The notes under the pieces were generated by a model. The model was not told the DNA's origin, searched no databases, and worked only from the letters and a program-made list of their open reading frames with translations. This document shows, in pieces, positions 18,001-63,230 of a stretch of 64,000 nt of DNA; position 1 is the stretch's first letter, and every line of letters starts with the position of its first letter. The position numbers and the translations under genes were made by a program. The stretch covers positions 1,440,001 through 1,504,000 of the forward strand of contig CM000151.3 of assembly GCA_000004695.1 (NCBI GenBank), given 5' to 3'. This DNA comes from Dictyostelium discoideum (Eukaryota).

Positions 18001-19004
18001 CTCTTACACTTTTCCTTTATAAAAAGAATTTAGTTAAACATTTAAATGGTGCAAATTCAATTATGCCAATCATACCAACATTGGGAGATTTAGAAGAATT
18101 AAATGAAAGATTATCACATCAATCATTAACAACTAGTGGTAAATTCTCTGGTGGTGGTGGTGGTGGTGGTATTGATTTCATTGATCAATTACAACAAAGT
18201 ACTGGTATAACTTTTGGTTTAATATTTAAAGCTACAACTCTTAAATTATCACCATTGGTTGATGGTGCAATTTTAAATGAAAATTATAATAAGAAATTAA
18301 CATCAATCTCTGCTTCTTCATTTGGTAGTGGTAGTTTTGGTCTTGGTTCTAATGGTGTTGGTAGTGTATTATCAATTGAATTGATTACAACTTATCTCTC
18401 TTCAATCATTACAATATTCCAACATCGTATGGTACATTTTACATTATCACAAAGATTCTTTAATCAAGTATTTTGTTGGATTGGTGCTTTAATAATGAAA
18501 GGTTTCATGTTGAGACAAACTTTTTGTACAGAAACATTTGCTACCTTTGTTAAAACAAAGATTGACTTTTTAACTAGATGGGCCGATGATATTGGTAATG
18601 TTTGGGTTGGTGATGTCGCTAATGCTTTCCAACAAGTTAGAGAGGTCATCAATGTTTTAAATATTAAAGATAAAGAAAAGATCATCGATGATAAAATACG
18701 TAAACAATATTGTCCAACTTTAAATTCAAATCAATTGAAACAAGTCTTATCTTTATTCTCTCCTGGTGAGTTTGGTGGTAAACGTGTCTCTGCTAAAGTT
18801 ATCGCCTCCATTTGTCCACCAAATAAATCCTCTGCTGGTCAATCCTTTGTTCAAGATGAAAACAAATTAAATACAATTCCAATTGATTCTTTACATTATT
18901 TAGAAATTCAAGATATTAAAACACTTTCTTTACCACTCTCTATAAGACAAACAATTGAAACTGAAATCATTAATTTAAAACAACAAATTGCTTGTAAAAA
19001 ATAA
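12059..19004 (+). CDS. myoJ: Class V-type unconventional myosin heavy chain, 2245 aa. It has a motor domain, six IQ motifs, a roughly 1000-aa coiled coil and a C-terminal DIL (dilute) cargo-binding domain. Exons: 12059..12829, 12919..13068 and 13188..19004.
   Basis: Motor-domain motifs are GESGAGKTE and [12 protein letters not shown]|[14 protein letters not shown]...NYHIFYQ|LLSGASEE. The two tiny introns have donors GTAAAAA at 12830 and GTAAGT at 13069, and acceptors tag at 12916-18 and cag at 13185-87. IQ motifs ([14 protein letters not shown]..., [14 protein letters not shown]... and others) fall near nt 14750-15180. A long Q/E/K-rich heptad region follows, then a DIL-like tail (...[42 protein letters not shown]...). 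The exon sum is 257+50+1938 = 2245 aa, which is the length I recall for Dictyostelium MyoJ (Myo5B). The symbol is assigned from memory of that length and domain order, not from a search. Confidence 0.8.
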
Positions 19005-19248: not shown

Positions 19249-19990
19249 AAAAAGACATCCTGTTTTTAAATAATTTAGTATTTAAAATTAAATAAATCAA
19301 ATAATAAAATTATAAGAGTATTTGATTAGATGAATTGGTCGAAGGAGCTAAGATTCGGAAGCACCGATTTTTGGAATATAATATACTTTTCCAGCTAATT
19401 TTCCTTAATTAATTTAAGGAAATTGTTTGGGTCTTTAAATTTGTATGAAAGTTTAAATTTTTTTTTTTTTTTTTTTTTCATTAATATTTATTAATCACAG
19501 TTTATCCATCCATAATTAATGGTTTTATCTATTTATTTTAATTTTAGAAAGTAAAGAAGATACTCCTTTTATTCATTTGATTTTTTTTTTTTAGGATTGA
19601 TGAGATCAATTTTCTATAAAAAAAAAAATCAGTTGCTTAGATTGATTGATCGAATGAGACAGGATTCGGGAGCACTGATTCAGGAATACAATATACTTTG
19701 CAAGTTAGTTTCCTTTAATAAAATCATTTAGGTCATTAAAATTTCTCTGATCTCTTTAAATCTTTTGCTTTTTATTATTTAATTCTTGAGTAGTTTATAG
19801 CATTTATTAAATTAGGTCGTTGTAATTCTAATGTTCCCTTACATTAAAGAAAAAATGACCATGTGGGTCTAGATTTTCTTTATGGTGGAGAAGTTCAATG
19901 GTGAACTTCTTGCATGATTTTTTTTTTTTAACTTAATATTAAAAATAAGGATTAACCAAGTAAGATAAAGAAAAGCACTTCCCAATTTAA
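19249..19990. repeat. Series of oligo(T)-tailed modules, oligo(A) on the minus strand, including two diverged copies of a roughly 90-bp core (about 19322-19410 and 19640-19730)
   Basis: Copy A reads gattagatgaattggtcgaaggagctaagattcggaagcaccgatttttggaatataatatacttttccagctaattttcctt. Copy B reads gcttagattgattgatcgaatgagacaggattcgggagcactgattcaggaatacaatatactttgcaagttagtttccttt. They are about 75% identical. T-runs sit at 19229-19247, 19441-19466, 19581-19590 and 19911-19921. The modules lie just 3' (minus sense) of the TRE-like element. Confidence 0.5.
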
Positions 19991-20128
19991 TCAACATTTT
20001 TTTTTTTTTTTTTTTTTTGATATAAATAAACTATTGTAGTATACGATTAGTATGTTATTTTTATTTATTTATTTTAGGTTTTTTAGTTTTTGTGAATTTA
20101 AAATGGTATGTTATTTTAGATTAGGTAA

Positions 20129-23100
20129 TTAATAATTAATTGGTGGTGTAATTGTTGGAATTGGTTCATTTGTGTTTATGCTCCATTCTTTTTTAAATTT
20201 TTTGATTGTTTCGGACCATTGGGTTTCTTTTTGAGTTTTTGTGAGGTTGTTTTTAATTGAGTATTGGTTGAAGTTTGATAATGTTCTTGAATATTCCAAT
20301 CTTATTAGCTTGTGCCATTTTGATTTTAATATATCATAATCTAGTGTTGTGTTGTTTATTTGATTGTTCCGATTATCAAATGATTGAGTTATATTGATGT
20401 CAAATAATGATTTGCATAACCATATCCATATTTGGTGAATAACTAATGAGATTATGTTCCAATATGCATGTGTTCTGACTAGATCAAGATTTGTGTTTAT
20501 ATAATTCCAGTTGAACCTGTATTTTTTATATTGTGCGTTTTCTGCAAAATGAAAATTAATATTGATAGTTGGATCTGGTTTAAATGCTTTGTTGTTTGTT
20601 TGTGGTTTATAAATGAGTGTGTATAATTTTGTTGTTTGGTTTTTTGTTAGTGACCAGTTTTTGTTTCTATTGCAATTTTTATATAAAAAATATTTTAATT
20701 TGTCGTGGTTTATGAAGTTGATTGTGTGCTGACAATTGAAAAACAAATGACCATAGGGATCATTATTCATTTCATTGTTGCAAATGGGGCAAACTTTGTT
20801 GTGTAGATGATTAATTGGAAGACATCTAGCATGGAATCTTTGCATTGTATCACGGCCTTTTGGATCTTTTAATTTTTGAATTTTGACAAATAGTTGGTCG
20901 TATGTGTATTTCCATAATAGTTGTATTGATTGTTGGTGCGAAGTAAGAAGTAGATCTGAATATTTCTTGCCAACATAGTCTTTTGATTTGCATTGGTGAT
21001 TGTTGAGTATTGTCGAGTAGAATTCTTTGAGTGTTGGTGGTAGTGAAATATTATTTGTGGTTAATGTTAGAGAGGTTTGGTTTTTTATTAATATTGGTTG
21101 TAGGATTTGAACTTTATCTTTTAGATGTCCAATTTGAGTTGCATAGTTTTCCCATTTTTTTGATTTTTATAAGGTATGGAGAAGAGATTGATTTGTTGAT
21201 GATTTGATCCATCCAACTTATCATGTATATTGAATTGTTTGCAGATTTATGCATTTGTAAAAATCTGTTGTATATCCAAATCTTTTGAGCAACTTGTCGT
21301 AATTGTATATTCCACATACCCCAACCACCTTCTTTTAATGGTTTTAATGATCTATCATAACACATCAAAGGTATTTTTGCACGGAATGGATGGTTGATGT
21401 GTTGTTTTTAATGGAATTGGTATTAGAGTTGGTGATTCAGAATTTGCGGGAGAATTCATAAACCATGAGATTAATTTATTAATTTGAATTTCTTCATCTT
21501 TTGTAAATTCTTCAAGGTATGATAAATATGTTATTGGTGATAGTGAGTAGGTGTTTATGATGGTTGTTTTTGTTTTTAATGTTGTGCCACTAGTTTTCCA
21601 TAGTACTAATGATTTAATCAGTGTTTTCATTGTTTCTGGTAATTTCCTATGTAAACCCCCTATGATTAAAGAAATAGCCAAGGACTCTTTCTGATTGATC
21701 TTTTTTGGTTATTGGGATTCTTTTTGATTGTGGAATGTTGTTTATTATGTGTTTATCAGTGATTTTGTGGGGGTTGATTTCTATTATTGCACTTTTGTCA
21801 AAATTTAATGATGATGATGTTGAAGCGCAGAAATTATCGAAATGTTTGATTGATTGTTGTTGTTGTTCGTAGTTGATGTTGTATGTTGTAGAGTCGTCTG
21901 CAAATTGGGTAAATTTGATTTTAATTTGTGGATTGGGTGAAATTGGTAATCCAATTATTGAATTGTCTGCATTTATTGTTCTTGCTAATATTTCAATTAC
22001 AATTACAAATAAAGTGGCTGAGATTGGGTCACCTTGTTTTACACCTCTTTTAATATCGAATTTTCTGGTCGTTTTACCATTAATTGAAATTTTTGCTTGT
22101 GAGTCAGATAATAGCTTGTGGATTAAATTTATTAATTTTATTGGTATACCAATATGAATTAATGTTCTTTTAATGCTATCGTGAGAGATAGAATCAAATG
22201 CTTTAAAGAAGTCAAATAGTGTGATGATACCAGGGAGGTTTTTAGATTTGAGGTAGTTGATTAATTCATTGATGTTGATGATGTTGTCTATGATGAATCT
22301 GTGGGGTACGAAACCAGTTTGGTTGTTATTGATGATGAAAGGAAGTATTCTCAGAAGACGTGCATTGATTACTTTGAGAGGGATCTTGTAATCAGTGTTT
22401 AGAAGTGTAATGGGACGACGATTTGATATGAGTAAGGGGTTGCCTTTCTGGTATATTGTGTGTATAAGACCTTCGGTGAATTCTGTTGTGATGTGGTGTG
22501 GATTTTCTAGTATATCGTTGAATAATGTAGTGAGAATTGGTTTAACTTGGTTTAAATGATTAATGTAAAATGCATTTGTAACTCCATCTGGACCGGGTGA
22601 TTTGTTGGGGTTACTGGTTTTAATTGCAGCTTCAACTTCATCTTTTATAAAAGGTGAGTCTAAACCATTCCAATATTCATTTTTTATGATGGGCCATGTG
22701 TTTAGCATGAGCTAGTGAGTAATTGGACAACATATTTGTAAGCTATATAGATTTGTGTAGAATTCAACAAAAGCATTTTCAATTTGGTCGGGGTCGGATG
22801 TAATGATGTTTCCATATTGGATTGATTCAATTTTTGCATCTTTTGATCTTTTGTTTAGTATTGCTGATAGATACTTGCTAGGTATTTCTCCATTTATATG
22901 TTTTTTTAATATGTTTGTGTGGTTTTGATGTAATTTGTTTTTGTTACATATAATATTGTATTCAGTGATGCATTGTTCTTCAAGATGTTTGAATTTTGCT
23001 GCTTTTTCTAATAGTATTTGTTTTGCACGTTGAGTTTGTTTGTCTTTGTTATATTGATAGTTTTTTAGAGTTTTAATAATTTTTGATTTTACTTTTGACC

Positions 23101-23953
23101 AATTTGTAAATTGATTGTTGATGTGTTATTGTGATTAGTTATTAAATGATTGATAATATTGATTGCTTCATGGTCATTTGCAGTACCAGGTGATAATATC
23201 CATCTTTTCTTATGTTTATTTATTTGAAAAGGTGAAGAAATTGTTGTTGATATTGGATTATGATCTGATAATGAAGATGGAATTTGGTGGACTTGTGTAT
23301 ATATATTTTCAGGGTCTATTCTATTGTATTGAGTATATATTCTATCTAATCTGTTACCATGTGTATGAGTTGGAGTGGTTTTTAAATTCACCTTGATCAA
23401 TTAGATGGTGTTGGTATGTGTAGGATTGGATAATATCATCTAATAGTGAATTGTCGTTGTGGATACAGTTGAAATCTCCTGCGATAATAGATACATGTTG
23501 GGATTGGTTTGGTATTGGGTTTGTTGAGTGGTTGTGGAGAAGTGTTTGTAGTGAAGTTGCATATGAATTCTTTTTGATGGTATTATTTGATGCTGGTGCG
23601 TAAATTCCAAGAATACCAATTGGTAATTGATTTGGAAATATAACGTCTGCTAAAATAGCTCTACCATCAATTGTTGATATGTGTTTGAGTTTGAGTGTGT
23701 TTGGGTTATGGTTAATGATGATTACACCATTTCCTCGTTTGGTGACAGAGATGATGTGATCGGGAAAATCATGTTTAAGTTGTAATGGTGATGAATTGAG
23801 TTCAGTGAGTATTGAAATTGTTGGACGCGGTGTAAGTTTTGATATAAGTAGTTGTAGTGTGTCAACAGGTTTTTGGTAGGAATTGTGGTGATTGTTGGGG
23901 TTTTCAGTGAATCCTCTACAATTCCATGTTATAAAGTTGATTTTTGAGCTCAT
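20129..23953 (-). pseudogene. TRE-like ORF2 with endonuclease, reverse transcriptase and a C-terminal Cys-rich domain, broken by multiple frameshifts
   Basis: The six-frame pieces are 23354..23953, 23089..23400, 21647..22708, 21355..21681, 21114..21368 and 20129..20845, all on the minus strand. They are collinear but fall in different frames. Confidence 0.7.
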
Positions 23954-25156
23954 ACCTTACTAGGTTTGGAAGCACCAGTATTGACTGGTTGTGTAGTCAG
24001 GGCATTGCTGCTTCTTCTTGGATTTATTGGATTTGGAGTTGGTGCACTTGGTTTGTTTGGTTGAGATTGTAGAGGTTTTTGTGGTACAATTGTTGGATCG
24101 GTTGGATTGCTCATTGATAATGAGTTTTTCCCGTTATTATTATTTGAAGAATCACTTTTGTGTGAAATTTCATTATTGTTTTGGGATTGATTGTTAATAT
24201 CAAGTGATTCATTTAGTATAGCTTTTGAACCACTATTTTGAAGTGAGTTATTATTGCGATTGGAATTTGCAATTTCGTTGATTGGTGGGGTGTTAATGTT
24301 GTTTTTTGGTGGTTGATTGTTTTTGTTCATGTTTGGGTTTGTGATGGCATTTTTTATAGTTGTTGCCATATCTGCATTTTTTGCATGTTGAATTTTGTGT
24401 TTAGTGACACTACGTGTTGCAGCTTTGATATATCTTGTGATACCAGATGGTTGTTCGATCTTTTGATCAACAATGTTGTGTGTGTGATCAATTAGATGAT
24501 ATGTTATAATGTAACTTTTAAACGCAACAGCATATGAGTATGTGACAGTAAATGATTCAATTGATGTACAACTGGTGAATTTAGTGAGGTTGTTTGTAAT
24601 TGCCTCGTTTGCATGTTTGGGTGAGTACGTTTTAATGAATGTTTTAATGATTGCATAATCATTTGATGATATATCGAATCTATAGTTGAGTTTGTCGATA
24701 TTTAGTGCAAGTTGGTTTTGAAGGTTGATTATTGAAGTTAATTTATCAACGTTGCAATTTACGAAGGCAGTTGCACCAATTATTTTAAATGCTGATGGCG
24801 ACAGTATATCTTCGAAGAGTTTGTGAATGTTTTTGTGAATTTGTTGGATTCTTGTGTCATCTTTAGAGGTTAATTCTTCACGGATGTGTGGTTGATTAAA
24901 GTAACACTTAATGTTGATGGTGTTATTGTTTTTTTCTAAGAAAGAGAGTGGTCTTGTGATTGATGGAGGTGCAATGATATCTAATTGATTATCAAGTCCT
25001 TTGTTTAGTGAGAGTTGGTTTGTTGGGGTTTGTTTTTTAGGTGTGTCGATTTTTGCACTTTTGTTTTTTGTTGTTGAGGTTGTGGAGGTATTATTTGTAG
25101 GTTGTGTTGTTATCTGTATGATTTAACTGTAATTCAGTTGAGTGATCATCAGCCAT
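23950..25156 (-). pseudogene. TRE-like ORF1 with one apparent frameshift near the N-terminus
   Basis: The minus strand reads ATGGCTGATGATCAC... (MADDHSTELQLNHTDNNTTYK*). From the +1 frame a continuous frame follows: ...NNTSTTSTTKNKSAKIDTPKK...HAKNADMATTIKNAITNP...ASKPSKV, ending at 23950. Confidence 0.55.
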
Positions 25157-25311
25157 TGTTGAAAAGTATATAGGACGATAGCCCTTGCTTTATTGAGCAA
25201 AAAAAGGGTAAAATTAAGAGGAATGAATGTGGCGGTGAAGATATAACAGTGATTTATTTATTATATGTATAAATTCTCGTTTATTTCTTTGTTTTTTCGG
25301 TATCAACATAT

Positions 25312-25350: not shown

Positions 25351-25424
25351 TGCCTCAGGCCGGGATCGAACCAGCGACCTTAAGATCTTCAGTCTCACGC
25401 TCGTACCAACTGAGCTACTAAGGC
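25351..25424 (-). tRNA. tRNA-Phe, anticodon GAA
   Basis: The minus-strand sequence GCCTTAGTAGCTCAGTTGGTACGAGCGTGAGACTGAAGATCTTAAGGTCGCTGGTTCGATCCCGGCCTGAGGCA folds as a cloverleaf with a 7-bp acceptor stem, the D-loop AGTTGGTA, the anticodon loop CTGAAGA and the T-loop TTCGATC. It is 74 nt with discriminator A, is followed by a T-rich Pol III terminator, and has no encoded CCA. Confidence 0.9.
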
Positions 25425-49721: not shown

Positions 49722-50672
49722 TTAAAATGAAAAAATTAAATTATTATTATTATTATTGTTATCAATAACATCAATACTATTTTTTTGAATAACATTTTTA
49801 ATTTTAATTAAAATTAAACGAGAAATAATTATTAAATTATTATTTTTAGAGAATGTTGGTAATGAATTTTCAAAGTAATTTATAAATACTCCTCTTAAAT
49901 ATCTTTTCTTTGTTTCTGTTACTTTGTCAATTGATTCATCGATTAAATCATTATCAAATATTATTGATTGATCAAATTTTAATTGATTTAATTTAATGAT
50001 ATAATCTCTTGAAGTTGTTATACTACTACCACTACTTCCACAACTATAACTAAAACTACTAAAAATAATAAACATAATTGATGAAATTAAAATTAATAAT
50101 TTAAAATCTTGAGAGTAATTAGGATGATTGAGAATTATATTTGAAAATGTTAAACCATGACAATTGAAAAATTTTTCAATGATTTCACAGGGGTGAAGTT
50201 GAATTAATTCTTTGTCATTTTCGATGAAATATAAAAGTCTATGAATTGAATTATTCGATGAGATTGATTTTATTAATTGTTTTCTATATTTTTTATCTAA
50301 TGTTTCAGATGGGAGAATTCCCATATTTTTAATAATATAGTCAAGTATTGAGTAATTTGAAGTTGAGAATAATTTTACACGAATATTATTAAAGTTCAAA
50401 TTTGAACTAATAAATATTAAGCGTGGGTCGATTTTACTATATTGTTTAAATAAAAGAAAATCTTTTGTATAGATAATATTATTTTTTGGTAATGTTTTGC
50501 CAATGTGCTCTTTATTTTGATTAAAATAAAAATGATATAGTTTTGGAAAAGTGAGTAAAAATAGATTACATTTATTATATAAATCATATGAACTAAAACA
50601 TAACCAACCTAATCTATTATTATCACATTTTGGATGTTTATATAAAAATCTACAAATATTGAAATATTCCAA
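49722..50672 (-). CDS. Hypothetical protein, 316 aa
   Basis: An intact ORF with no recognisable motif. Confidence 0.35.
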   Translation of the reverse strand: MEYFNICRFLYKHPKCDNNRLGWLCFSSYDLYNKCNLFLLTFPKLYHFYFNQNKEHIGKTLPKNNIIYTKDFLLFKQYSKIDPRLIFISSNLNFNNIRVKLFSTSNYSILDYIIKNMGILPSETLDKKYRKQLIKSISSNNSIHRLLYFIENDKELIQLHPCEIIEKFFNCHGLTFSNIILNHPNYSQDFKLLILISSIMFIIFSSFSYSCGSSGSSITTSRDYIIKLNQLKFDQSIIFDNDLIDESIDKVTETKKRYLRGVFINYFENSLPTFSKNNNLIIISRLILIKIKNVIQKNSIDVIDNNNNNNNLIFSF

Positions 50673-50716
50673 TGATTTATTATGATTTATTAAAGTGAAT
50701 TGGTAATTTGAAAAGT

Positions 50717-52243
50717 TTAATTTTTAAAAATAAATTTCACAATTTCAAAATAACATTTCCTAATTGCTTGATCAATTGTTGGTTTTGGATTGTTTTCAAT
50801 TTTTTTTAATTTGTTTTTTGATAAATAAAATTCAAATGATTTAACATCACCATTAAATAAATTATCAGGTGAGAAATTTTCATTTACAACTTGATCGTAA
50901 TTGGAGATAAGTTGTTTATTTTCATATAAATATTTAACAATTTCAAATTTACTTGTAAAACATTCAATTGGATATTTAAAATCTTTTTTATATTTAAATA
51001 TAAATTGTATGAAAATATCAAGGTATTCAATATCAAAAAGATTATTTGTAATATTTTCTACTACTCTTTCTAATAGTTTTATATTATTTAAAACTATTGA
51101 ATTATTATTATTATTATTTTTAATTAAAGATTGAAATTCTTCTTTTGATGGATTGGATGAAAGGCTTGATAAAATTATATTAATGTTGACATCGGTTAGT
51201 GAATTTAAATCTTCAGAGTAGTTAATGTTACACATTGACACACCTGATTTTAATTGTAAATTTTTAACGAAACCACCCCAAATATATTTGACAACTTGGA
51301 AATCCAATGGTTTTTGTAAATCACTACCATTGACCAAGAGAAAAAGTTTAGAAGAATTGATTTCAATAGTAGGATTTCTTGGGACAATGCCCTGCTCAAT
51401 TAAAAGTTTTGCAAATTCCATTGAAGAGAATTTACATGCAACTTGAACTAATACTTCTTTTGAAAAATTCGATATTAATTTTTTAAATTCACTTGTTGTT
51501 AATAAATAAGTGAAATGTTTAACTAAATTTCTTTTGACCAATGAGTATAATAATACTTGTAATTTATCCACACCACCATTAAGTTCAATATCTTTTTTAT
51601 AAAATTGAATTTGTTCTAAAAATATTTTATAATTTTCACTTTCGCCAAAAGGTATTAAATTATTAATTTGATTGGTATTATGCACTATTTGAGGACCCAA
51701 AGTGAAATTGAACATTGGTTGGTTGTTTTCATCTTTTTCTCTTTTTAAAAATTGAAAAATTTCAAAATTTCCATTAGTTGATGCTGCAACATTTAATATT
51801 GTTTCTTTATTTTTTAAAAATTCTGGGTTCGATTTAAAATAGTGGTAAATTAATTTAAATCTTTGAAATGACAATTCTTTATAACTTAATAAAAGATGGA
51901 ATTCATTATCTGCAACGTTGCAGATATTATCTACATTTTGATCTTGTAACCTTAATTGACAATACCAATATTTTGCAGGATTTTGAATTGCAACTTTAAA
52001 AAAAAAGTCAACAAAATAATTGAATACTTGATACATCTTTTTTTTTAATAAAATTCCCAAGTTTAAATCTTGTGTTTTCATTGACTCTGTAATTTTATCA
52101 TAGATACTATAGTCTAAAAAACCTCCATCTTTTGAGTCTTCAAACATTTGTTCATATTTGACATATCCCCATATAATTTTTGAAATAACTAAATTATTGA
52201 ATACTTTTTTATATAATTTATACATTTTTAAATTAAATTCCAT
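50717..52243 (-). CDS. Hypothetical protein, 508 aa
   Basis: An intact ORF with no recognisable motif. It is separated from the downstream ORF by an in-frame stop and has no convincing splice donor. Confidence 0.4.
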   Translation of the reverse strand: MEFNLKMYKLYKKVFNNLVISKIIWGYVKYEQMFEDSKDGGFLDYSIYDKITESMKTQDLNLGILLKKKMYQVFNYFVDFFFKVAIQNPAKYWYCQLRLQDQNVDNICNVADNEFHLLLSYKELSFQRFKLIYHYFKSNPEFLKNKETILNVAASTNGNFEIFQFLKREKDENNQPMFNFTLGPQIVHNTNQINNLIPFGESENYKIFLEQIQFYKKDIELNGGVDKLQVLLYSLVKRNLVKHFTYLLTTSEFKKLISNFSKEVLVQVACKFSSMEFAKLLIEQGIVPRNPTIEINSSKLFLLVNGSDLQKPLDFQVVKYIWGGFVKNLQLKSGVSMCNINYSEDLNSLTDVNINIILSSLSSNPSKEEFQSLIKNNNNNNSIVLNNIKLLERVVENITNNLFDIEYLDIFIQFIFKYKKDFKYPIECFTSKFEIVKYLYENKQLISNYDQVVNENFSPDNLFNGDVKSFEFYLSKNKLKKIENNPKPTIDQAIRKCYFEIVKFIFKN

Positions 52244-52517: not shown

Positions 52518-52590
52518 GCTCGATTAGCTCAGTCGGCAGAGCGTGGTGCTAATAACGCCACGGTCGCAGGTTCGATCCCTGCATCGAGCA
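52518..52590 (+). tRNA. tRNA-Ile, anticodon AAU
   Basis: GCTCGATTAGCTCAGTCGGCAGAGCGTGGTGCTAATAACGCCACGGTCGCAGGTTCGATCCCTGCATCGAGCA folds as a cloverleaf with acceptor GCTCGAT/ATCGAGC, the D-loop AGTCGGCA, the anticodon loop CTAATAA and the T-loop TTCGATC. It is 73 nt. Confidence 0.9.
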
Positions 52591-52634: not shown

Positions 52635-52696
52635 CACTTCTGAAAAAGGGAAATAAAGATCCTGGAAATTAAAAAAAAAAAAAAAAAAAAAAAACC

Positions 52697-53961
52697 AAAC
52701 AACAAAAATGCTAGTGGATTTCAAGTTATTAATTTAATGAGAACCAAAAGAGCAAGATACCCACTAAAAGTAGGGGGCTGGAACATTTGGAATATAGAAT
52801 TGAGACAACTGGCGCAGAAACTTTGGATCATAAACCAGTTCATCCTAGCACTAGAAACCAAACAAACAAACTCATCTCATCACAAAAGCTGGGAATATCA
52901 GATCCAAAAAAACAAATTCACATCCAGATACCTAAAAGAAAACTTAGACGAATGGAACAAAATAAGAATAAAAAAAGCAATTTTCAACAATAATCTCACA
53001 TCCATAAAAAACGAAAATGGACAACCACTTTCACTGGCAGAATGGTATACCACAATTCAAGACCAAAATCCACCATCCCTAAAACGGAATTCCAATCATC
53101 TCTAAACTTAAGAGGCTACAGCTATAATCAACTCTTCAACAACATACTGAAGATAAAAGACCCTAAAACAAGAGACACAATGTTTAGATTCCATGCCAGA
53201 TGCCTTCCAATAAACTACCTTCACAACAAACAATGCCCACTCTGCAAAGAAGATATGAGCAAAGACCCATACGGTCACCTGTTCTTCTCATGCAAGAAAA
53301 CAAAACAATTCATAAAAATAAATAAACTCAAAAATTTCATCTATATTACCACAGGCAAAGGTAAAAACTGGCACCATACAAGAATTAGGCAAAATAACAA
53401 TTTCATTAATAGAATAACTCCAAAATTATCACCGATAGCCAAAAAAGATCAAGAAGTGAATGCAGATTACGCCAACCACAGATTCCACAAAGAATACTTT
53501 GAATGGAACTATAAAGCAATAGACTATGATCTAACCAGATCATTCGCATATAGAAACCTAATGGCCCTTATCCTCCACAACATTTGGATTTGGATTTGCA
53601 ATCAAATATACAGTGAAGATCCTTTAACAAATGAATCACTATCATACAGCTCCCTTCTAAAGAAATGGCACAAATTGGCCACTCTAGAATACATCAAAAA
53701 AGCAAAAGATCTAAAAAACTTATCAGCAAAAGACCATAATAACTTCAAAGATCCTAAGATCCTTCTCACCTCAACGATCAAGCTAAGAAAAACAACAGCT
53801 AATTACTATTGTATTCCAGAATCATCTCTCCCAAATATTATATCTTTTGATCAATTCATATGATTAAAATAACCCTTCAGCTTAAATGATAAGCCTATAA
53901 ATAAATATTAAATAAAAACTCGTATTAACACAGATGGATATATATCAATCTTGTTAATCCA

Positions 53962-53995
<34 letters not shown>
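52697..53995 (+). mobile_element. 5'-truncated fragment of a TRE3-like non-LTR retrotransposon. It holds the ORF2 C-terminal Cys-rich region, a 3'UTR and an A29 tail, downstream of tRNA-Ile and its external B box.
   Basis: The ORFs at 52737..53105 and 53042..53863 are about 35-40% identical to the C-terminal ORF2 pieces of the 20129..21368 element (MFRFHARCLPINYLHNKQCPLCKEDMSKDPYGHLFFSCKKT against MQRFHARCLPINHLHNKVCPICNNEMNNDPYGHLFFNCQHT). They sit in two frames, so there is a frameshift. The 3'UTR is about 100 bp and is followed by an A-run at 53967-53995. The flanks read aaaaaaaaaCCAaac (52669-52699) and aaaaaaaaaCCAtct, which may be an A-rich target-site duplication. Confidence 0.7.
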
Positions 53996-53997
<2 letters not shown>

Positions 53998-54767
53998 ATC
54001 TGATAAAGAATTTTAAAATATTATATATTTTATTTTAAAATTCTTAATTAGATTATTTTAAAAAAATAATACTTGTATGACACAATATTTAAAAAAAAAA
54101 AAATAAAAAAAAAAATTGTATTATCTTATTTATACCAAATTTTTCTTTAACATTAAATAATTCAAATAAAAATCGACTCAATTAAAATAAAAAAAAAATT
54201 TTAGATAAATATTAAAAATAAAAAATAAAAAAACAAAACAAAACAAAATAATTAGCAAATTAGTAGTTATAAAATTTTGATATCTAACCCAATTTCGTTA
54301 CCAAATATATTTATAATTAATTAATTAATTTTTTTGACTTTTAATTTTAAAGCAAAAAGGAATTTTGAAGGACCGATTCATTAAAATTTAGAATATTAAA
54401 TTTTTTTTTTATTCTGAAGTATAATAATAAAAATAATATAGATACCCCCCTACCTCTAACTGAAAAAATAAAATAAAATCTATAAATAGTGGTAAGTATC
54501 TAATTTAAGCAAAGATTAATTAATAAAGTTTAGGTATTTTTTTCGGATTTTTTTTCTCTTTTAAAAAAGTAGAAAAAAAAAAAAAAATCTAAAATCTACT
54601 TGTTTAAATTTGTCATTGACCAATGATATAAAAACATAGATATTTTTAAATTTCTTTTACTTCAAAAACTTGTATTAATTTGAAATAAAATTTAATATAC
54701 TAACAAAATTTTTTTTTCTGAGTGAATAATTTAAAGAAAAAAAAAGTTTAAAAAATCATGGAATTTC

Positions 54768-56718
54768 ACTCAACAAAAACCGAAATTAAAGAACTAAATT
54801 TACAAGTATGTAAAGAATCCGATATTGCAATCATAGGTGTTGGATTTAGATTACCAGGAGATAACAACGAACTAACTGAACTCTGGAAAAATTAAAAATG
54901 TGTTTTCGATGGGATTCAAGAATTTGAAAATGAAAGAATAACAAAAAATTATTCAATTCTCGACCAATTTAGTAGCAATAAAGCTGGTTTGGTAAATTTT
55001 GAACAATGGAAAAATTTCGTCCCAATTTTTTTTGGTATTTCAAATTCAGAATGTTCAAATATTGATCCACAACAAAGGTTATCATTAATATCGACTTGGG
55101 AAGCCTTGGAAGATGCTCATTTAGACCTGTTGAACTACGTGGAACAAATACGTCAGTTTTTATGGGTAGTTTCTCAATTGATTATACTCATGGTTTAAGA
55201 GATAGAAGTGATTCAAAACCAAATACTCTTGCATCAAATTTTCATTGCCTTTCAAATCGTATTTCATAATGTTTTGATTTGAGAGGTCAATCATTATCAA
55301 TTGATACTGCATGTTCATCATCTTCAAATGCAATTATTTCAGGATGTAAAACAATCATTGATGGTTCTTCAAACATTTCTATATGTGGTGGTTCAAATCT
55401 AATTATTGATCCATGTTTCTCAAATTCAATTTCATCTCAAGGAATGAATAGTCATTTGGGTCATTGTATGTCATTTGATGCTTCTGCCGATGGTTATGTT
55501 AGAAGTGAAGGATGTGGAATTTTAGTTTTAAAGAAATTATCTGAACCAATTAAATATGGAAATAAAATCTATTGTGAAATAAAAGGTTTTAGTTCAAATA
55601 ATGATGGAAATGTTGAAAAAGGTAATTTCTTTGCTCCTTCAGTTCTTGGTCAATTTTTAAATATAGAATTGGCTTTCAAATCAACCGTATTACCAGATGA
55701 TATTTATTTTGTAGAATGCCATGGTACAGGTACACCAGTTGGTGACCCAATTGAATTAGAATCAATTTCTAAGGCTTTAAAAATTTCTATTTCAAGATCA
55801 CCAAATTCACCATTATTAATTGGCTCATTTAAATCAAACATTGGTCATACTGAAGCAGCATCTGGTGTTGCATCATTAATAAAATGTTGTTTAATGTTTC
55901 GTCATCGTAAATTGGTTCCAAATATTAACTTTAATAAACCAAATCCAAGAATTAATTTTAAAGATTGGAATTTAAAAGTTGTTACTGAAAAAATATCATT
56001 CCCAAAAGACAAACAAATTTCAATAATTTTGGTGTTACTGGTTCAAATACATGTTTTATTTTATCTGAATACATTGAAGATAATAATAACAATAATGAAA
56101 TGGAAACTACAAATTTGTTAGAAAATGACGAATTTTTAATTCCATTCTCATCAATGACAAATAAGTCAATGGAAAAATATAAAAATCAAATCGAAAAATT
56201 CTAAGTCAACCAAATGGATTTTGTTGAATTTGTTTCAAAACAAATTTGTACGAAAACAACTCAATTAAGTCAAAGATCAGTGGTTTTTTCAAAATTAAAT
56301 TGGGAAGGTTATAATAAAGAAAGTATTTCAACTCAATCAAATAAAGTTTCAAATTTTATGATTAAATCAATTGAACCAACTGTTGTTTTTGTATTTCCTG
56401 GTCAAGGTCCACAATTTAATAAAATGGGAATTGAATTATATGAAAAAGAACTTGATTTTAGAAATTCAATGGATGAAAAAAATGAAATCTTTAAATCATT
56501 ATATGGTTATTCTGTTTTTGATAAATTAAGAAGTATTAAGGATGATGATAAAACTTTAATTGATTTACCATCATTTGGACAACCTGCAATGGTAATGATT
56601 GAAATATCATTATTTAAATTATTAAAAAATCATTGGAATATTCAACCATCTTTCATTGTTGGTCATAGGTATTTATAATTTTTTTTTTTGGAAATTAAAA
56701 TTAATTAATCATCCAAAT

Positions 56719-56758
<40 letters not shown>

Positions 56759-59700
56759 TTAATAGTTTAGGTGAAGTGGCTGCATCATTTTGTTCTGGTA
56801 TGATAGATTTAGAAACATGTTGTAAAATAGTTTATGTTAGAAGTACTTTACAAGATTCACTTGTTGGATTTGGTAAAATGTTATCTGTAACAATTACTAA
56901 AGAAGAATATAATAAAAATTATTTATCACAATTCCCTTCATTAGGAATTGCATGTTTTAATTCAAATAATTCAATTGTAATTTCTGGTAATGAACAAGAT
57001 TTAATTAAATTATCAAATCAATTAAAATCAAATTCAAAACCAAATTTATTTTTAGGTGCAAATGTCTCATATCATTCTTAAAGTCAAATTAAAATTAAAA
57101 ATGAAATGATTTCTGGTATTGGTCAGTATAAAAGTAATGAAGCAGTAACTCCAATAATTTCAACTTTAACATGTGAATTTTTTAATCCAACTCGACATCC
57201 ATTTAATGCTGAAAATAATTTTAAAAGTTCAAAATCACCTGTTTACTTTAAAGGAGCAATTGAAAGTTTATATAAACATATTGAAGATAATAATATTGGT
57301 AGTGGTGCAGTAACATTTGTTGAAATTCCTCCTCATCCAGTTTTATCATTTTATTTAAATGAATTAAAACCACAAAATTCAAATCATTTTTCACCAGATT
57401 CAATTTCAATTTTACCAACATTAAATAGAAAAAAAAATGATATAAAAGAAATTCAAAAAACTGTTTCAACTTTATATTGTCAAGGTTGTAATGTTAATTT
57501 TAAATCTCAATTCAATGGTATCAATAATATGAATGGTATAATTAACGTAAATAAAATATAATCAAAAGATTTACAAGATATCAATGGGATTTACAAAATT
57601 ATTGGAATGAAACATATGAAGCTTATTTGAATAAAATTAATGGTCCACCAATTACAATCTTGGGAAATTCAAATAGTTTAACCTCACCTTTAATTTCAAT
57701 GACAACTTTAAATGATATTTCAAAAGAACCATTCCATTGATCATGTTGTAAACGGTAAATTTTATTTCCCAGGTTGTGGTTATATAGATAATATTTTAAA
57801 TCTTTACCCAAACCAAGATTTATTAATTGAATATTTAGAATTTAAACTTCCATTTATTTTAAAAGAAAACAAAAATTTTGAAATGACAACAAATATAACT
57901 CAAACTGCACCAAATCAAAATAATGTTTATTTTCATATTAAAGATCAAAAAACAAATCAATGGGTTCAAAGTTCAAGAGGTAATTTTTCAGTTTTTAAAA
58001 AACAATTTTCCAATTCTCCCCGACCAACAATAAATAAATACAATATTAAATCATTGAAATTAGAACATAACTATAGTCATTTGTTAAAATCAGATTTTTA
58101 TGATTATGTAAAAAAAATTACAGGAATTAATTTCAAAGGTTGTTTCCAACGTGTTCAAGAATGCTGGATTGGAGAAAATTATTCTATTTTGGTTAAAATT
58201 TCAACTAATAATTTATTATCAGTTCATGATAACAAAGTATTTTTAAACCCATCAATAATTGATAATTGTTTACAAGGATTTTTTGTATCATCATTTATTG
58301 ATCCAAGTGTTGCTGTATTTGATAGAATTGAACATTTAAAAATTTATTCTTCAAATATTCCAAATGTTTCATCAAAGTTTAATGATGAAGAAACTTTTAT
58401 TTATGCAATTGCTAAAAATAATACAGATAGTAGTTTACCAAGTAATTCATTTAGTGGTTCAGTTGTTGCATTTTCAGAGAATGGTCAAATAATATTAGAA
58501 TCAAAAAATGTTATTGGTACATCATTAGTACCAGTTACTGATTGTACTATACCAGAATATCCAACTGAAGATTTTTTTTCATTTATTCTGGAGCCAATTG
58601 ATTCACAAATTTCAATAACACTTCCAAATCAATCAGTTAATGAGTTTGAAAATGAAAAGAACTCTCAACTAATCGATAGTTCAATCTATAAAAAGATGAT
58701 TTCAAATTTATTATTTAATAATCTAAAATTAAGACTTTCAAACCAAATTTCAAAAGAATTATTATTTAACAATTCTGTTGATCAATTATTAAAATTATTT
58801 TTAAACAAAGCCAATTCAAAATATTCAAGATTATTACATTTTGTTTTTGATACATTAAAAGTATCGATAGATGATTTGGATGAAATTAAATGTGATTTTA
58901 CAGGTTCAAGTGAACAATTATTATTTTCAAAATCATCAAAAATCATTTTAAAATTATTATTCCCAAGACCAAACATGATGATGAAAATCAAGATACACCT
59001 CAATCATTATTAGATAGTGGATTAATTGATAATTTATTTTCAAAATTAAATTTTGATATTTATTCATTATCAATTGCAAAAAAAATAATTTAATCAATTA
59101 AACCACTTTTGGACAACCAAACATTAAATTTTGAAAGTTCTTTCCAATCATAATCATTTAAACCATCTTATTATGATATTATTGCATTATCAAATGTTTT
59201 ACATGTAAATGATATTCAATTTAGTATCGAGCAAATTAATGGATTATTAAAATCAAATGGTGATCTATTATTTATAGAAATACCAAAATCAATAATTTAT
59301 TATATAACATTTGTTAGTTTTGAACAATGGTGGATTTTTTCTGATTACAACATTAGAAATGATAGATGTTGTATGGATGCAGATAATTGGGTAAAAATAT
59401 AATCAGTAAATGGTTTTAAAAATTCAATAATATCAAGTTCAAATAATTCATCACTTCCATTTATAATTCAAACTAAAAAACAAGAATTATTATTTGAACC
59501 AATTAACCAACATATGGATTTTGATATTATTTTATATACTGGCAATAGTAATGAAAATTCAAAAATTAATGATTTTATTAGTTTAATGAAAAATGAATTG
59601 TTTTTAAATAATAATGGTAAAATTAATATAATAAAAACAATTAAAGAACTTAAAAATCAAAAAATTCAAGATGAAATCAAATCAATTATTTTTTTTTTAC

Positions 59701-60320
59701 CATCAATTTTACCATTGGAAATGAATAATTATAATGAAACCTCATTGAAATTATTTGAAATGGGTCAATTCTTAATTGATAATAATAAAACTAAATGGAA
59801 AATTGTGGTAATTTCAGAAAATTCTCAATCAGAATCAATTAATTATTTAAATTCATCAGTTTTCGGTGTAATGAAATATTTTGAAAATACAAAAATCACT
59901 GTTTATTCGTTAGATTATGATAATCAATCAATTTCAAATATTGGTTAAATAAACAATTAATTCTTTAATATTAAATTCAAATAAACATATTCAAATAGAG
60001 TATATAATAAGGGAAAATAAAGTTTACTCGGAAAGATTGTATAGAGAATCTATTGATAAAACATTTTCAGTAAATTTCAACAATCAAATAAAAGAAAATA
60101 TATATGCAAAATTAAATACATCATTACAATATGAATCTAACTAACTTTAATATAATATAAATTTAAAGAATATGGCGCAGATAGTCTTCATGCTACAATC
60201 TTTAAAAATATGATTGAAAAACAATTCAACCAACTGAATATTTTAACAACTTCGCAAATCCAAACATTAACAATTAAATCAATAATTAAAATTAATGAAA
60301 AAGTAACAAAAAAAAAATAA
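54768..60320 (+). pseudogene. Decayed type I iterative polyketide synthase pseudogene. KS, AT, DH, a methyltransferase/KR-like region and ACP remnants remain, but the gene is broken by in-frame stops, frameshifts and large internal deletions.
   Basis: The KS region reads IAIIGVGFRLPGDNNELTELWKN*, with a TAA where a sense codon is expected. A frameshift sits near 55150. NRIS*CFD carries a TAA for Tyr at about 55265. The KS active site is DTACSSS and the His motifs are ECHGTGTPVGDPIE and NIGHTEAASG. GVTGSN is lost by a frameshift at about 56030. In the AT domain the GHSLGE motif spans a 97-nt intron (56669-56765). The DH motif is HVVNGKFYFPGCGYID, preceded by several stops (57545-57720). The ACP remnant is EYGADSLHATIF at about 60170. 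The whole locus is about 5.5 kb against the 8-9 kb of an intact Dictyostelium PKS. Confidence 0.75.
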
Positions 60321-60466
60321 AATAAAATAAAGTATCAATCTATATTATTTGTTATTATTTGGTTTTGTACAGATTTATTTATTATTTATTTATTTTATCT
60401 TTCAGTTTTTTTTTTTTTTTTTTTTGGTCTTTTTTTTTTTCACCATTTTTTTTTTTTTTTTTTATT

Positions 60467-62593
60467 TTATAACTCTACACTATCAATAAAAGAAGTTAAG
60501 AAAGAATAATAATTACTTTCAATTGGATTGATAATTTTAAATTTTGGAGAGTTTGAATATTGTGAATATTTTCTTGTGAAAAATAAAAGCATATCATTAT
60601 CTACTCTGTATTTTGTATTTTGATTGAAGCAATCTCTAACAGTTTTATCGACATCAACTGAAAAGTAATCTAAATCTGGTGGTGAGTAAATAGTTTGAGT
60701 TGAAGAACCAATATTTCTATTTTGATCGTCAACCATCGATGGATCATGGTACAACTCGATTGATTTCTTCCAATATGATTCAATACCGAATTTATAATTG
60801 AAATCTGTAACCAAAGAACGATCATTGTTTGAATTTGTCTTATCTTCAAATTCAGAGTTTAACTTTTGATTTGGATAAAAGAATGATCTTAGTGTAATCT
60901 TTTGATCTGCTGAAGAGAATTGTTGGTAATGATCATTTAAAAAGTTGTGAGCTGCTAATTTCAATTGGAAAAACTCTTGATAAAATGTATTCCAAACGAA
61001 AATCTCTTGAGAGAATCTTTTCAAAATCGTAAAAGCTACAGAAAAAACATGACCACCAAAATCTTTATTAAAATCCACTGCATATTGTAAATAATATTTC
61101 ATGAGTAATGGTGACATGAAAACACTAAAATTTTGAATCGAGATTACACCTCTACCATAATATTCTTCAATCTTTGGATATTTTGATTTTGCTTCTTTAT
61201 AATTATAACCTACAATCGATAAGAGAATTAAAAGTGGAATATCAGGATTATCAATTGGTAATAAAGAAACTGATTGTTGTGGTGATGTTGCTGCTGTTTG
61301 AATTAAATAACCCAACATTCTATTGGTAATATCATCCAATGGAATATTCTTTATATGAGTCTTTGGATTGTCAGATCTAATTTCATTGAGTACTATTGTG
61401 AATAATTCATTCAAACCTGATTGACCACCAATGAATTGTAAAACCCTATAGATATTTGGGTAATCATGAACGTTGAAACCATCGTCTGGTATTGAAAGTG
61501 GAGTAATACATTCATTCAAGTAATTGATATTATTATAAAAGTTTGGATTTGTTAATCTAAGGATTCTTGAATTTTCAAATACCAACTCACTTGGTAAAGC
61601 AAAACGACATGATACTGTTATAAAAATTCTAACATCATTGAATTTAATTTTTTGAAGTAATAATAATATATCAATTTCAGATTGTGGTAAATCATCAATT
61701 ATAATATGAATTAATGGTTTTTGTGATAAATTATCATTTTCTTTTTTCTTCTCTGAAATTTGTTGTGGTTGTTGCTCACTATCATTTATTTCAACATCAG
61801 TATCTAAATTCTTTTGTTGTGGTTGTAAACCAGTTATTTTTAAAACTAAATTATTAATTTCATTTTCTAAATTTGTTGAATAATTATCTTGATTAAATTT
61901 ATAATGCTGTTTTTTAATGAATGATAAAAATAATCTTTGATCATCATTTAATTTATCTACACCTAAACTATTACGCTCTAAATCCTGTTCGGTCTCTGGT
62001 TGAGGTTGATCATCCAATAATTCATCATCGTCATCATCTTGTTGTTGTTGTTGTTGTTGTTTCTCTAAAAATCTATCGATATATAAAAGTCTATGATAAA
62101 GAATTGTGTTTACACTATCATTATCCTCAAATGATGGAAAAATTGGCATCTCTTTAAATGATAATATGATCTTCTTTGGCTCATCAATCATTTTATCTCT
62201 TCTGAAATTAATATATTTTGAAGCAGCATGGGTCGATGAAACCTCTTGAAGATGTTCCTCCATTAATCTTGGATATGATGAATAACCACTCATAAATTCA
62301 TGTTTCATATGTTGAATGATTTTCTTGAATTTCTTTTTCTTTGCATTACTGTCATATTGATGATAGGCAACTATTGATGGTGTATCTTGAATTATATTTA
62401 AAAAATTACTATTTCTTTTTGAATCTGGTGAAATTACAAACATTATTGATTTGCCATACTTATTATCTTGTGTACAAAATCCTCTTTCAAATTCAATAAC
62501 TGATTCTGAAAGACCTAGCAATTGACGTTTAGTTTCATATTCTTTAAGTTTTGCATCAAATAATGGTTTTAGTTTAAATGATATTATTGAATT

Positions 62594-62624
<31 letters not shown>

Positions 62625-63040
62625 GATGATGGTAAATAATTATAGCTTGTTGGTGTATTAAATTCATTCTTTTGTTTCTTGTAACCATTATCTGCAATTC
62701 CCAATTGATTATTATTGCTATTGCTATTACTATTATTATTATTATTATTATTAATTTCCGCTTCATTTCTACTCATTAATGAATTGTTTGTATAACCATT
62801 TGTATCACGAATACCAGCGGTAATTTTATTACTTGAGTAATCTTTTTGTTGTTGTATTTGCTCTTCTTCCTTTTGTTTTCTTTGTGCACCACCAAATAAA
62901 ATTCTTTCTTGTTTTTCTTTTTCCACTGGTCCTTTTTTTAACATCCTCTTTAAATACACTAAACGAGTTTGTAATACCTGATCATCTCTATCAAATGTTG
63001 ATTCATCAAAAAATAATTGACCTTTATCTGCACCCTCCAT
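60467..63040 (-). CDS. Hypothetical protein of about 858 aa with poly-Gln/poly-Asn tracts and an acidic stretch
   Basis: A long intact ORF. The likely start is MEGADKGQLFFDESTF... (the second Met of the six-frame ORF). I saw no confident domain. Confidence 0.4.
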
Positions 63041-63230
63041 TTTTAATTTCTTTTTTCTAATTAATTTTAAATATTCAAAAATAAATATCATATTAATATT
63101 TTGTTATTCCATTACTAAATATATGAAATAATAATAATAAATAATAATAATAATAATAATAAATATATATATATATTTATTTATTTTTTCTATTTTATTT
63201 ATTATTAAAAAAAAAAAAATTAGAAATACA

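Follow-up and report, generated by a model that had tools for sequence, protein, structure and literature searches.

Evidence for the in situ decay of a polyketide synthase gene on chromosome 2 of Dictyostelium discoideum AX4

Did a type I polyketide synthase (PKS) gene die in place on chromosome 2 of Dictyostelium discoideum AX4, or do its stops and frameshifts come from sequencing errors, from a stray copy or from a shorter gene that is still in use? The question is raised by positions 54758 to 60320 (forward strand) of a 64,000-nucleotide stretch of that chromosome, here called the window (about 22% G+C, with poly-Asn/Gln coding), in which an original prediction from the sequence alone had recognized a Dictyostelium PKS gene in advanced decay. 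We examined the interval by Pfam searches, tblastn and DNA alignment with orthologues, and that interpretation is supported. From its ATG to its native TAA, the locus is almost certainly a unitary pseudogene, i.e., a non-processed pseudogene in situ, of a type I iterative, highly reducing PKS. The remnant appears unable to make a functional synthase. Its decay is confined to the NC4/AX lineage and appears fairly recent, and as a biological event it is real but ordinary.

A three-frame reading of 54400-60500 shows that ketosynthase (KS), acyltransferase (AT), dehydratase (DH) and acyl carrier protein (ACP) sequences are spread across all three forward frames. Pfam hits on the pieces come in the order ketoacyl-synt N and C, KAsynt_C_assoc, Acyl_transf_1 (three pieces), PKS_DH_N/PS-DH and ACP_SdgA_C, with E = 1.4e-25 for ketoacyl-synt and E = 4e-31 for Ketoacyl-synt_C. 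The domain order along 54758-60320 is KS, linker, AT, DH, a methyltransferase (MT) remnant, a gap where the enoylreductase (ER) and ketoreductase (KR) are deleted, and the C-terminal half of ACP. The five catalytic motifs cited in the original prediction (DTACSSS, HGTGT, GHSLGE, HxxxGxxxxP and GADSL) are all found on the forward strand in the order given. DTACSSS, HGTGT and also NIGHTE are read in the 55270-56118 frame, the DH motif is DHVVNGKFYFP at ~57739 and the phosphopantetheine site of ACP is YGADSL at ~60172. GHSLGE is present too, but it is not contiguous in the DNA. A 97-nt phase-2 intron with GT..AG ends (56669-56765) splits the active-site Ser codon (GGT CAT AG|gtattt…aatag|T TTA GGT GAA), and the AT nucleophile GH-S-LGE is restored only once this intron is spliced out (AG|T). 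The intron is kept at the identical position in the orthologues of a wild D. discoideum isolate and of D. citrinum and in three paralogous loci, all described below. Since it is kept in every relative examined, the break in GH|SLGE is gene structure and not damage.

The gene begins at the ATG at 54758 (not 54768, as had been proposed) and ends, as proposed, at the native stop 60318-60320. The exon 1 remnant (54758-56668) carries KS, the KS-AT linker and the N-terminal half of AT up to GH and the AG of the Ser codon. The exon 2 remnant (56766-60136) carries the C-terminal half of AT, the DH with its HxxxGxxxxP motif, the degenerate MT remnant and the region before ER. It is followed by the 3' remnant of the last intron (60139-60168, …tataaatttaaag) and by the last exon (60169-60320), which encodes the C-terminal part of ACP with the GADSL phosphopantetheine site and the native TAA. 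A naive translation reads 'YKFK' before EYGADSL; this is the tail of the last intron, because a 2.07-kb deletion took its 5' splice site.

What stands at this position in other genomes? With the ankyrin-repeat neighbour as an anchor, we located the corresponding slot in three more genomes of the collection described in PMC12745789. They are L006 (GCA_054859355.1, locus-tag prefix ACTFIW), a wild and divergent D. discoideum isolate that is CR116C or OT3A of that study; L007, a 'D. cf. discoideum' isolate of a cryptic sister lineage; and L008 (GCA_054859145.1), D. citrinum. The locus is not discussed in PMC12745789. The anchor is DDB_G0272134 (50717-52243, reverse strand), which is divergent from the PKS; on the other side DDB_G0272416 (857 aa, 60467-63040, reverse strand, placed by homology search) is convergent with it. 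The ORFs 50717-52243 and 60467-63091 (both reverse strand) are 100% identical to the respective AX4 proteins in homology searches; looking up seven ORFs of the window by exact sequence gave no hit, because annotated proteins begin at other Met residues or the genes are split. A tRNA-Ile(AAU) gene (52518-52590, forward strand), itself a retroelement target, holds the same syntenic position in AX4, in the three genomes above and in D. firmibasis (L005).

In the wild isolate, the slot between the tRNA-Ile/ankyrin side and the DDB_G0272416 side contains a PKS gene with 92.8% DNA identity to the window. In D. citrinum the slot contains an open PKS gene with 85% DNA identity. On homologous codons, the amino acid identities to AX4 are 92.9% and 82.6%, respectively. 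Both orthologues share with the AX4 locus the flanking genes, the tRNA-Ile, the orientation, the AT-serine intron and the last intron; they differ from it in having open frames of ~2,567 aa (wild isolate) and ~2,578 aa (D. citrinum) with ER, KR and a full ACP. The wild-isolate gene has three exons (654 aa, 1,898 aa and the ACP exon), separated by the AT-serine intron and the last intron, and its frame has zero stops in 2,516 codons. Its protein architecture by Pfam is KS-AT-DH-(MT, below threshold)-ER-KR-ACP. In the same protein the SAM-binding motif at residues ~1430-1445 is degenerate (…RIMIIDSKFTLS instead of ILELGGGTCS), and residues ~1960-1975 form an atypical ER nucleotide-binding stretch (HMYNSISDGFG). 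The MT, and perhaps the ER, may already have lacked catalytic activity by the time the AX4 gene died.

Lesions in AX4 were called from the DNA alignment with the three orthologues. After 60136, where the global MAFFT alignment was wrong, the tail of the window was placed by local alignment. The nine stops and the frameshift sites were also recovered by a separate frameshift-aware protein-to-DNA alignment against paralogues. There are nine nonsense codons, TAA in every case, and a single base separates each of them from a sense codon conserved in the three orthologues. Two of them had been predicted, LWKN* (54893-54895; TTA or TTG Leu in the orthologues) and RIS*CFD, which lies within RISYCFD just upstream of DTACSSS (55267-55269; TAT Tyr in all orthologues). 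Both are real and fall at positions that are Leu and Tyr, respectively, in every relative; the prediction was incomplete in the count. The other seven are located at 56202-56204 in the KS-AT linker (TAT Tyr in the orthologues), 57079-57081 in the AT domain (YHS*SQ; TCA Ser), 57559-57561 in the AT-DH linker (TCA Ser), 59091-59093 (GAA Glu), 59151-59153 (CAA Gln), 59400-59402 (TTA Leu) and 59950-59952 (TCA or TCT Ser).

Six deletions shift the frame. A 1-nt deletion in KS lies at 55125/55126 (GAT CCT -> GA-CCT), a 10-nt deletion between AATAAT direct repeats at 56021/56022 (…ISIMINNFGVTGSN) affects the end of KS and the linker, a 1-nt deletion is found at 57573/57574 (TTACCAAG -> TTA-CAAG), and an 8-nt deletion (GGTTAAAA) at 57738/57739 lies just upstream of the DH motif. 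The frameshifts predicted in KS, at the KS-AT linker and upstream of DH are thus all found, the last as two separate events, and there are two more downstream, a 1-nt deletion at 58966/58967 and a 5-nt deletion (ATACA) at 59943/59944. Four in-frame losses were mapped as well: 9 nt (three codons) in KS at 55682/55683, where the bases are present in the wild isolate and D. citrinum; 204 nt (68 codons) at 59116/59117 in the N-terminal part of the MT-like region, seen in AX4 only; and 3 nt each at 59206 and 60099. The largest lesion is a ~2.07-kb deletion with its junction at 60128-60138 (microhomology AATATGAAT / AATACTGTAT), which corresponds to ~20323 to ~22389 of the reverse-complemented sequence of the wild isolate. 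With one end shortly ahead of ER and the other inside the last intron, it has eliminated ER, KR, the N-terminal half of ACP and that intron's 5' splice site. In total the gene measures 5,563 nt in AX4 compared with ~7,884 nt in the wild isolate. The locus is too short, as predicted, by ~2.3 kb and not by about 3 kb.

Measured against the orthologue frame, no continuous spliced frame joins all domains of the AX4 locus (nine TAA and six frameshifts interrupt it). KR and, in this orthologue group, ER are missing; the two domains (residues ~1851-2382 of the wild-isolate protein) fall in the 2.07-kb deletion. The spectrum is one-sided: nine of nine nonsense codons are TAA, and six of six frameshifts come from deletions and none from an insertion, a pattern that agrees with AT-biased, deletion-biased mutation in a 22%-GC genome.

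Could the stops and frameshifts be errors of the AX4 sequence that hide an intact gene? The AX4 assembly dates from the Sanger era and its DNA is very AT-rich, and two 1-nt differences between AX4 and AX2 that break ORFs lie nearby, at 50723 in the ankyrin gene and at 53071 in the retroelement ORF. We compared the window with a near-identical assembly of the same collection, L004 (AX2-like, presumably AX2-214 of PMC12745789), which was assembled independently and de novo from Nanopore and Illumina reads. Across 53072-60405 it is identical to AX4 at every base, while it does differ from the AX4 window by SNPs and indels in the flanks. The lesions are not sequencing errors, because this assembly carries all of them identically. 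In addition, none of the frameshift sites lies in a long homopolymer and ~2.3 kb of coding sequence is physically absent. The suggestion that homopolymer errors account for the frameshifts and that an ORF of at least 2500 aa can be restored therefore fails, and we regard an intact AX4 gene hidden by assembly errors as practically out of the question.

A second alternative is that the locus is a duplicated or processed pseudogene, a dispersed or retro-copied PKS fragment rather than the original gene in decay. The best listed matches in a protein search with the stitched translation were P0001 (D. dimigraforme), P0002 (D. citrinum) and P0003 (D. firmibasis), proteins of ~2,200 aa with 57-61% identity. 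Among the matches listed (all of ~2,400 aa or less, a length that both true orthologues exceed), none from D. discoideum exceeded 43%. In a representative library the P0002 cluster alone is close to the remnant (51% over DH), and all others are at 40% or below. P0001-P0003 resemble the remnant in their KS-AT-DH-MT-KR-ACP order and in the intron at the AT active site. They are unlike the remnant's orthologues in that they have no ER, have an extra 5' intron, carry the AT motif GHC(F/L)GE instead of GHSLGE and occupy another locus. Their loci (L001 10001-16353, L002 10001-16833 and L003 10001-16781) adjoin UbiA prenyltransferase and methyltransferase genes, and a tblastn search found no remnants of these neighbours in the window. 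Taking P0001-P0003 as orthologues would leave the locus only ~1.2 kb short; this was rejected, as synteny places them in the UbiA/methyltransferase neighbourhood.

The different genomic context of these best matches, the absence here of their first intron and the adjacent retroelement would all suit a copied fragment. The 5' intron is, however, absent from the intact genes of the wild isolate and D. citrinum too, and its lack was rejected as a sign of retro-processing. Intact orthologues with 85-93% DNA identity sit in exactly the same slot, and AX4 keeps the whole AT-site intron and part of the last one. The sequence after 60320 is T-rich and no poly(A) tail was found there, and D. firmibasis has a decayed relic in the same slot. 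A processed pseudogene lacks introns, ends in a 3' poly(A) and lies at a new location; here introns are kept, no such tail is present and the location is ancestral. A dispersed or retro-copied origin is therefore extremely improbable, and decay of the original gene in place is the reading we keep: the remnant lies in the syntenic slot of an intact orthologue, its lesions are real and derived, and constraint is relaxed on the AX4 branch.

Two features of the paralogues are recorded here in their own right. The AT active site of P0001-P0003, which come from three species, has Cys instead of Ser (GHCFGE/GHCLGE, with the codon split as TG|T by the conserved intron), and the genes look intact. A UbiA-type prenyltransferase lies beside the PKS in L001-L003, and SAM-methyltransferase genes also flank it in L001 and L002. 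These loci could represent a meroterpenoid-type cluster. No D. discoideum counterpart of the UbiA-flanked paralogue cluster was seen.

When was the gene lost? In the comparison with the three orthologues, all stops and frameshifts are derived and confined to AX4/AX2. With D. citrinum as the outgroup, 54 synonymous, 76 missense and 9 nonsense changes fall on the AX4 branch and 62, 29 and 0 on that of the wild isolate; the contrast of synonymous and nonsynonymous changes (54/85 versus 62/29), an excess of nonsynonymous ones in AX4, gives Fisher p = 1.5e-5. Random single-base mutation of the coding sequence is expected to yield 19.9% synonymous, 73.6% missense and 6.6% nonsense changes, and the 6.5% of nonsense changes observed on the AX4 branch matches this neutral value. 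In pairwise comparison, dN/dS is still ~0.20 between AX4 and the wild isolate (dS 0.144) and 0.17 between the wild isolate and D. citrinum, so that for most of its history the gene was under constraint. By a simple two-phase calculation, the branch counts suggest that constraint was lost over very roughly the last third of the AX4 branch. An alignment to paralogues had been proposed to enumerate the deletions and decide whether they are ancient; by comparison with orthologues the lesions are lineage-specific and not ancient, and the decay as a whole is best described as lineage-specific decay under relaxed constraint.

The following course of events would account for these observations. The ancestral gene had three exons, encoded ~2,567 aa with the order KS-AT-DH-(degenerate MT)-ER-KR-ACP, and was flanked by tRNA-Ile/DDB_G0272134 and DDB_G0272416 in the ancestor that the discoideum, citrinum and firmibasis lineages share. 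On the way to the NC4-derived laboratory strains (AX4 and AX2), selective constraint was lost. Ordinary AT-biased point mutations and deletion-biased indels then built up (the nine TAA, the six frameshifts and the 204-nt deletion), and the 2.07-kb microhomology-flanked deletion took ER, KR and half of ACP. The lesions, their lineage specificity, the synteny and the excess of nonsynonymous change are observed directly, whereas we infer the order of the lesions and the timing.

It might still be argued that the remnant encodes shorter functional proteins, such as a stand-alone KS-AT or DH. The longest ORF within it (433 aa) spans DH, and automated annotation of the AX2-like assembly has gene models of 623 aa and 826 aa on it. 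The KS-AT part alone, however, has four stops and two frameshifts, which the models skip with invented introns, and missense and nonsense changes accumulate near neutral proportions along the whole remnant. We consider retained short proteins very unlikely, and return to the locus as a dead gene. The annotation itself deserves a remark. On L004 12893-18279 two protein-coding genes have been placed on the pseudogene (826 aa with PS-DH and 623 aa with KS/AT), and a 375-aa gene has been placed on the retroelement fragment described below. These gene models are spurious, and the two on the PKS remnant should be flagged in the AX2 annotation.

The same slot has been hit in other lineages. 'D. cf. 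discoideum' has a single and different lesion, a 1,851-nt deletion that removes 1,756 coding bases, shifts the frame and takes the C-terminal half of KS and the N-terminal part of AT (AX4-equivalent 55501-57334). Outside that deletion its frame has no stops in the sequence covered. The otherwise open gene suggests a very recent second loss. The same genome has an LTR retrotransposon (RT/RNaseH/integrase, 1,031 aa) between the tRNA-Ile and the PKS. In D. firmibasis only ~1.4 kb separates the two flanking genes, and the conserved tRNA-Ile lies in this interval. Between the tRNA-Ile and the DDB_G0272416 orthologue, at L005 13897-14220 (reverse strand, the expected one), we found a 115-codon relic of the region after KR and before ACP with four in-frame stops. 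It scores 65 bits (E = 5e-13) to the syntenic PKS versus 49 bits to D. firmibasis's own paralogue; the rest of the PKS is deleted there. Given the remnants in AX4, 'D. cf. discoideum' and D. firmibasis, the gene is ancestral to the slot and was lost independently at least three times. One syntenic slot thus presents gene death in stages (intact, one large deletion, many lesions, a 115-codon relic), and the series may be used for teaching or for calibration of mutation spectrum and deletion bias in a 22%-GC genome.

Did the neighbouring retroelement start the decay? A retroelement next to the gene had been predicted, and it is indeed there: a 5'-truncated fragment of a TRE3-type non-LTR retrotransposon (52696-53995, forward strand) that starts ~106 bp downstream of the tRNA-Ile and ends 760 bp upstream of the PKS ATG. 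What remains of it is the C-terminal end of ORF2, which has a CX2CX10HX4C knuckle and stops at 53862, and a poly(A) at 53967-53995; a separate poly(A) tract lies at 52672-52695. TRE3 elements integrate ~100 bp downstream of tRNA genes and have an oligo(A) 3' end and an ORF2 zinc-finger region (PMC5006619). The fragment is like this family in its spacing from the tRNA, its zinc-knuckle end of ORF2 and its poly(A) tail, and unlike it in being 5'-truncated with no endonuclease (APE) or reverse transcriptase (RT) domain. Assignment to the TRE3 type fits these features and has an indirect link through an APE+RT element at 19.6-25.2 kb of the window; the fragment is 41-43% identical to the C-terminal part of that element. 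The latter is a degenerate non-LTR element with several ORFs (19640-25200, reverse strand; APE 23354-23953, RT 21647-22708, C-terminal region 20246-20944). It lies downstream of a tRNA-Phe gene (25351-25424, reverse strand) in the same orientation, and is a second TRE3-like insertion in the window. At 53071 AX2 has one extra A relative to AX4 within the ORF of the fragment, which joins ORFs of 122 aa and 273 aa into the 375-aa ORF.

The fragment is found in AX4/AX2, is absent from the intact allele of the wild isolate and sits between the PKS and its divergent neighbour. An insertion 760 bp upstream of the ATG, in a shared divergent promoter region, could thus have silenced the gene first, with the coding lesions following later. 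In D. citrinum, where the PKS remains open, a related element has inserted independently ~100 bp downstream of this tRNA-Ile. TRE3 targets positions ~100 bp downstream of tRNA genes whatever the neighbours, and these are regarded as safe sites (PMC5006619). The ~310 bp directly upstream of the ATG are, moreover, still 92-93% conserved between AX4 and the wild isolate. Silencing by the insertion is unlikely, if less so than the alternatives discussed above. Given the separate insertion that D. citrinum carries at this hotspot next to an intact PKS, the association of retroelement and pseudogene is probably incidental. Decay of the gene through its own coding lesions, after a loss of constraint, is the reading that we prefer.

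Some points weigh against a unitary pseudogene devoid of function. The intactness of the wild-isolate gene covers 2,516 + 34 codons, and the final ~17 codons lie beyond the sequence compared. The 'unitary' status would follow from synteny by itself. That the locus has no residual function, be it as a transcript, a small RNA or a regulatory element, is a presumption drawn from its DNA. The locus is also likely to be one of the five PKS pseudogenes already published for AX4, presumably pks11 or pks12 on chromosome 2.

What does the loss mean for users of the laboratory strains? The standard strains lack a PKS that is still held by wild, mating-compatible D. discoideum isolates, and a metabolite comparison of AX2/AX4 with OT3A/CR116C could assign its product. 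It is conceivable, if rather doubtful, that interfertile D. discoideum is naturally polymorphic for function at this locus, the gene being intact in CR116C/OT3A from Central America/Mexico and dead in the NC4 laboratory lineage. Taken with the separate losses in a cryptic sister species and in D. firmibasis, such a polymorphism would make the polyketide conditionally dispensable and ecologically variable. If true, the AX strains would be a ready-made null for the product and function of an orphan PKS.

Other observations in the window and at its flanking genes were made along the way. A class-V-like myosin gene (Myosin_N, motor head, IQ and DIL) occupies 12059-19004 on the forward strand with an intron at ~12998-13328 and is unrelated to the PKS. 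DDB_G0272134 is annotated as 502 aa in AX4; in the AX2-like assembly, the wild isolate, 'D. cf. discoideum' and D. citrinum it is a single gene of 818-845 aa (window 49722-52243, reverse strand). AX2 has an additional G after window position 50723, and adding that G to AX4 gives an 841-aa ORF. The difference at 50723 is either an AX4 reference error or an AX4-specific frameshift.

How does the locus compare with PKS genes and pseudogenes already described? Dictyostelid PKS genes are known for rapid lineage-specific turnover, and the table of intact PKS genes (Table S6 of Sucgang 2011, PMC3188802) has no entry between DDB_G0272134 and DDB_G0272416. Five PKS pseudogenes are reported for AX4 (PMC9618038). 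With turnover and pseudogenes of this kind on record, the locus carries little weight for basic biology, and what the present analysis contributes is the lesion-by-lesion map and its polarization against intact orthologues. The published AX4 pseudogenes are alike to this locus in genome, gene family and kind of lesion (in-frame stops).

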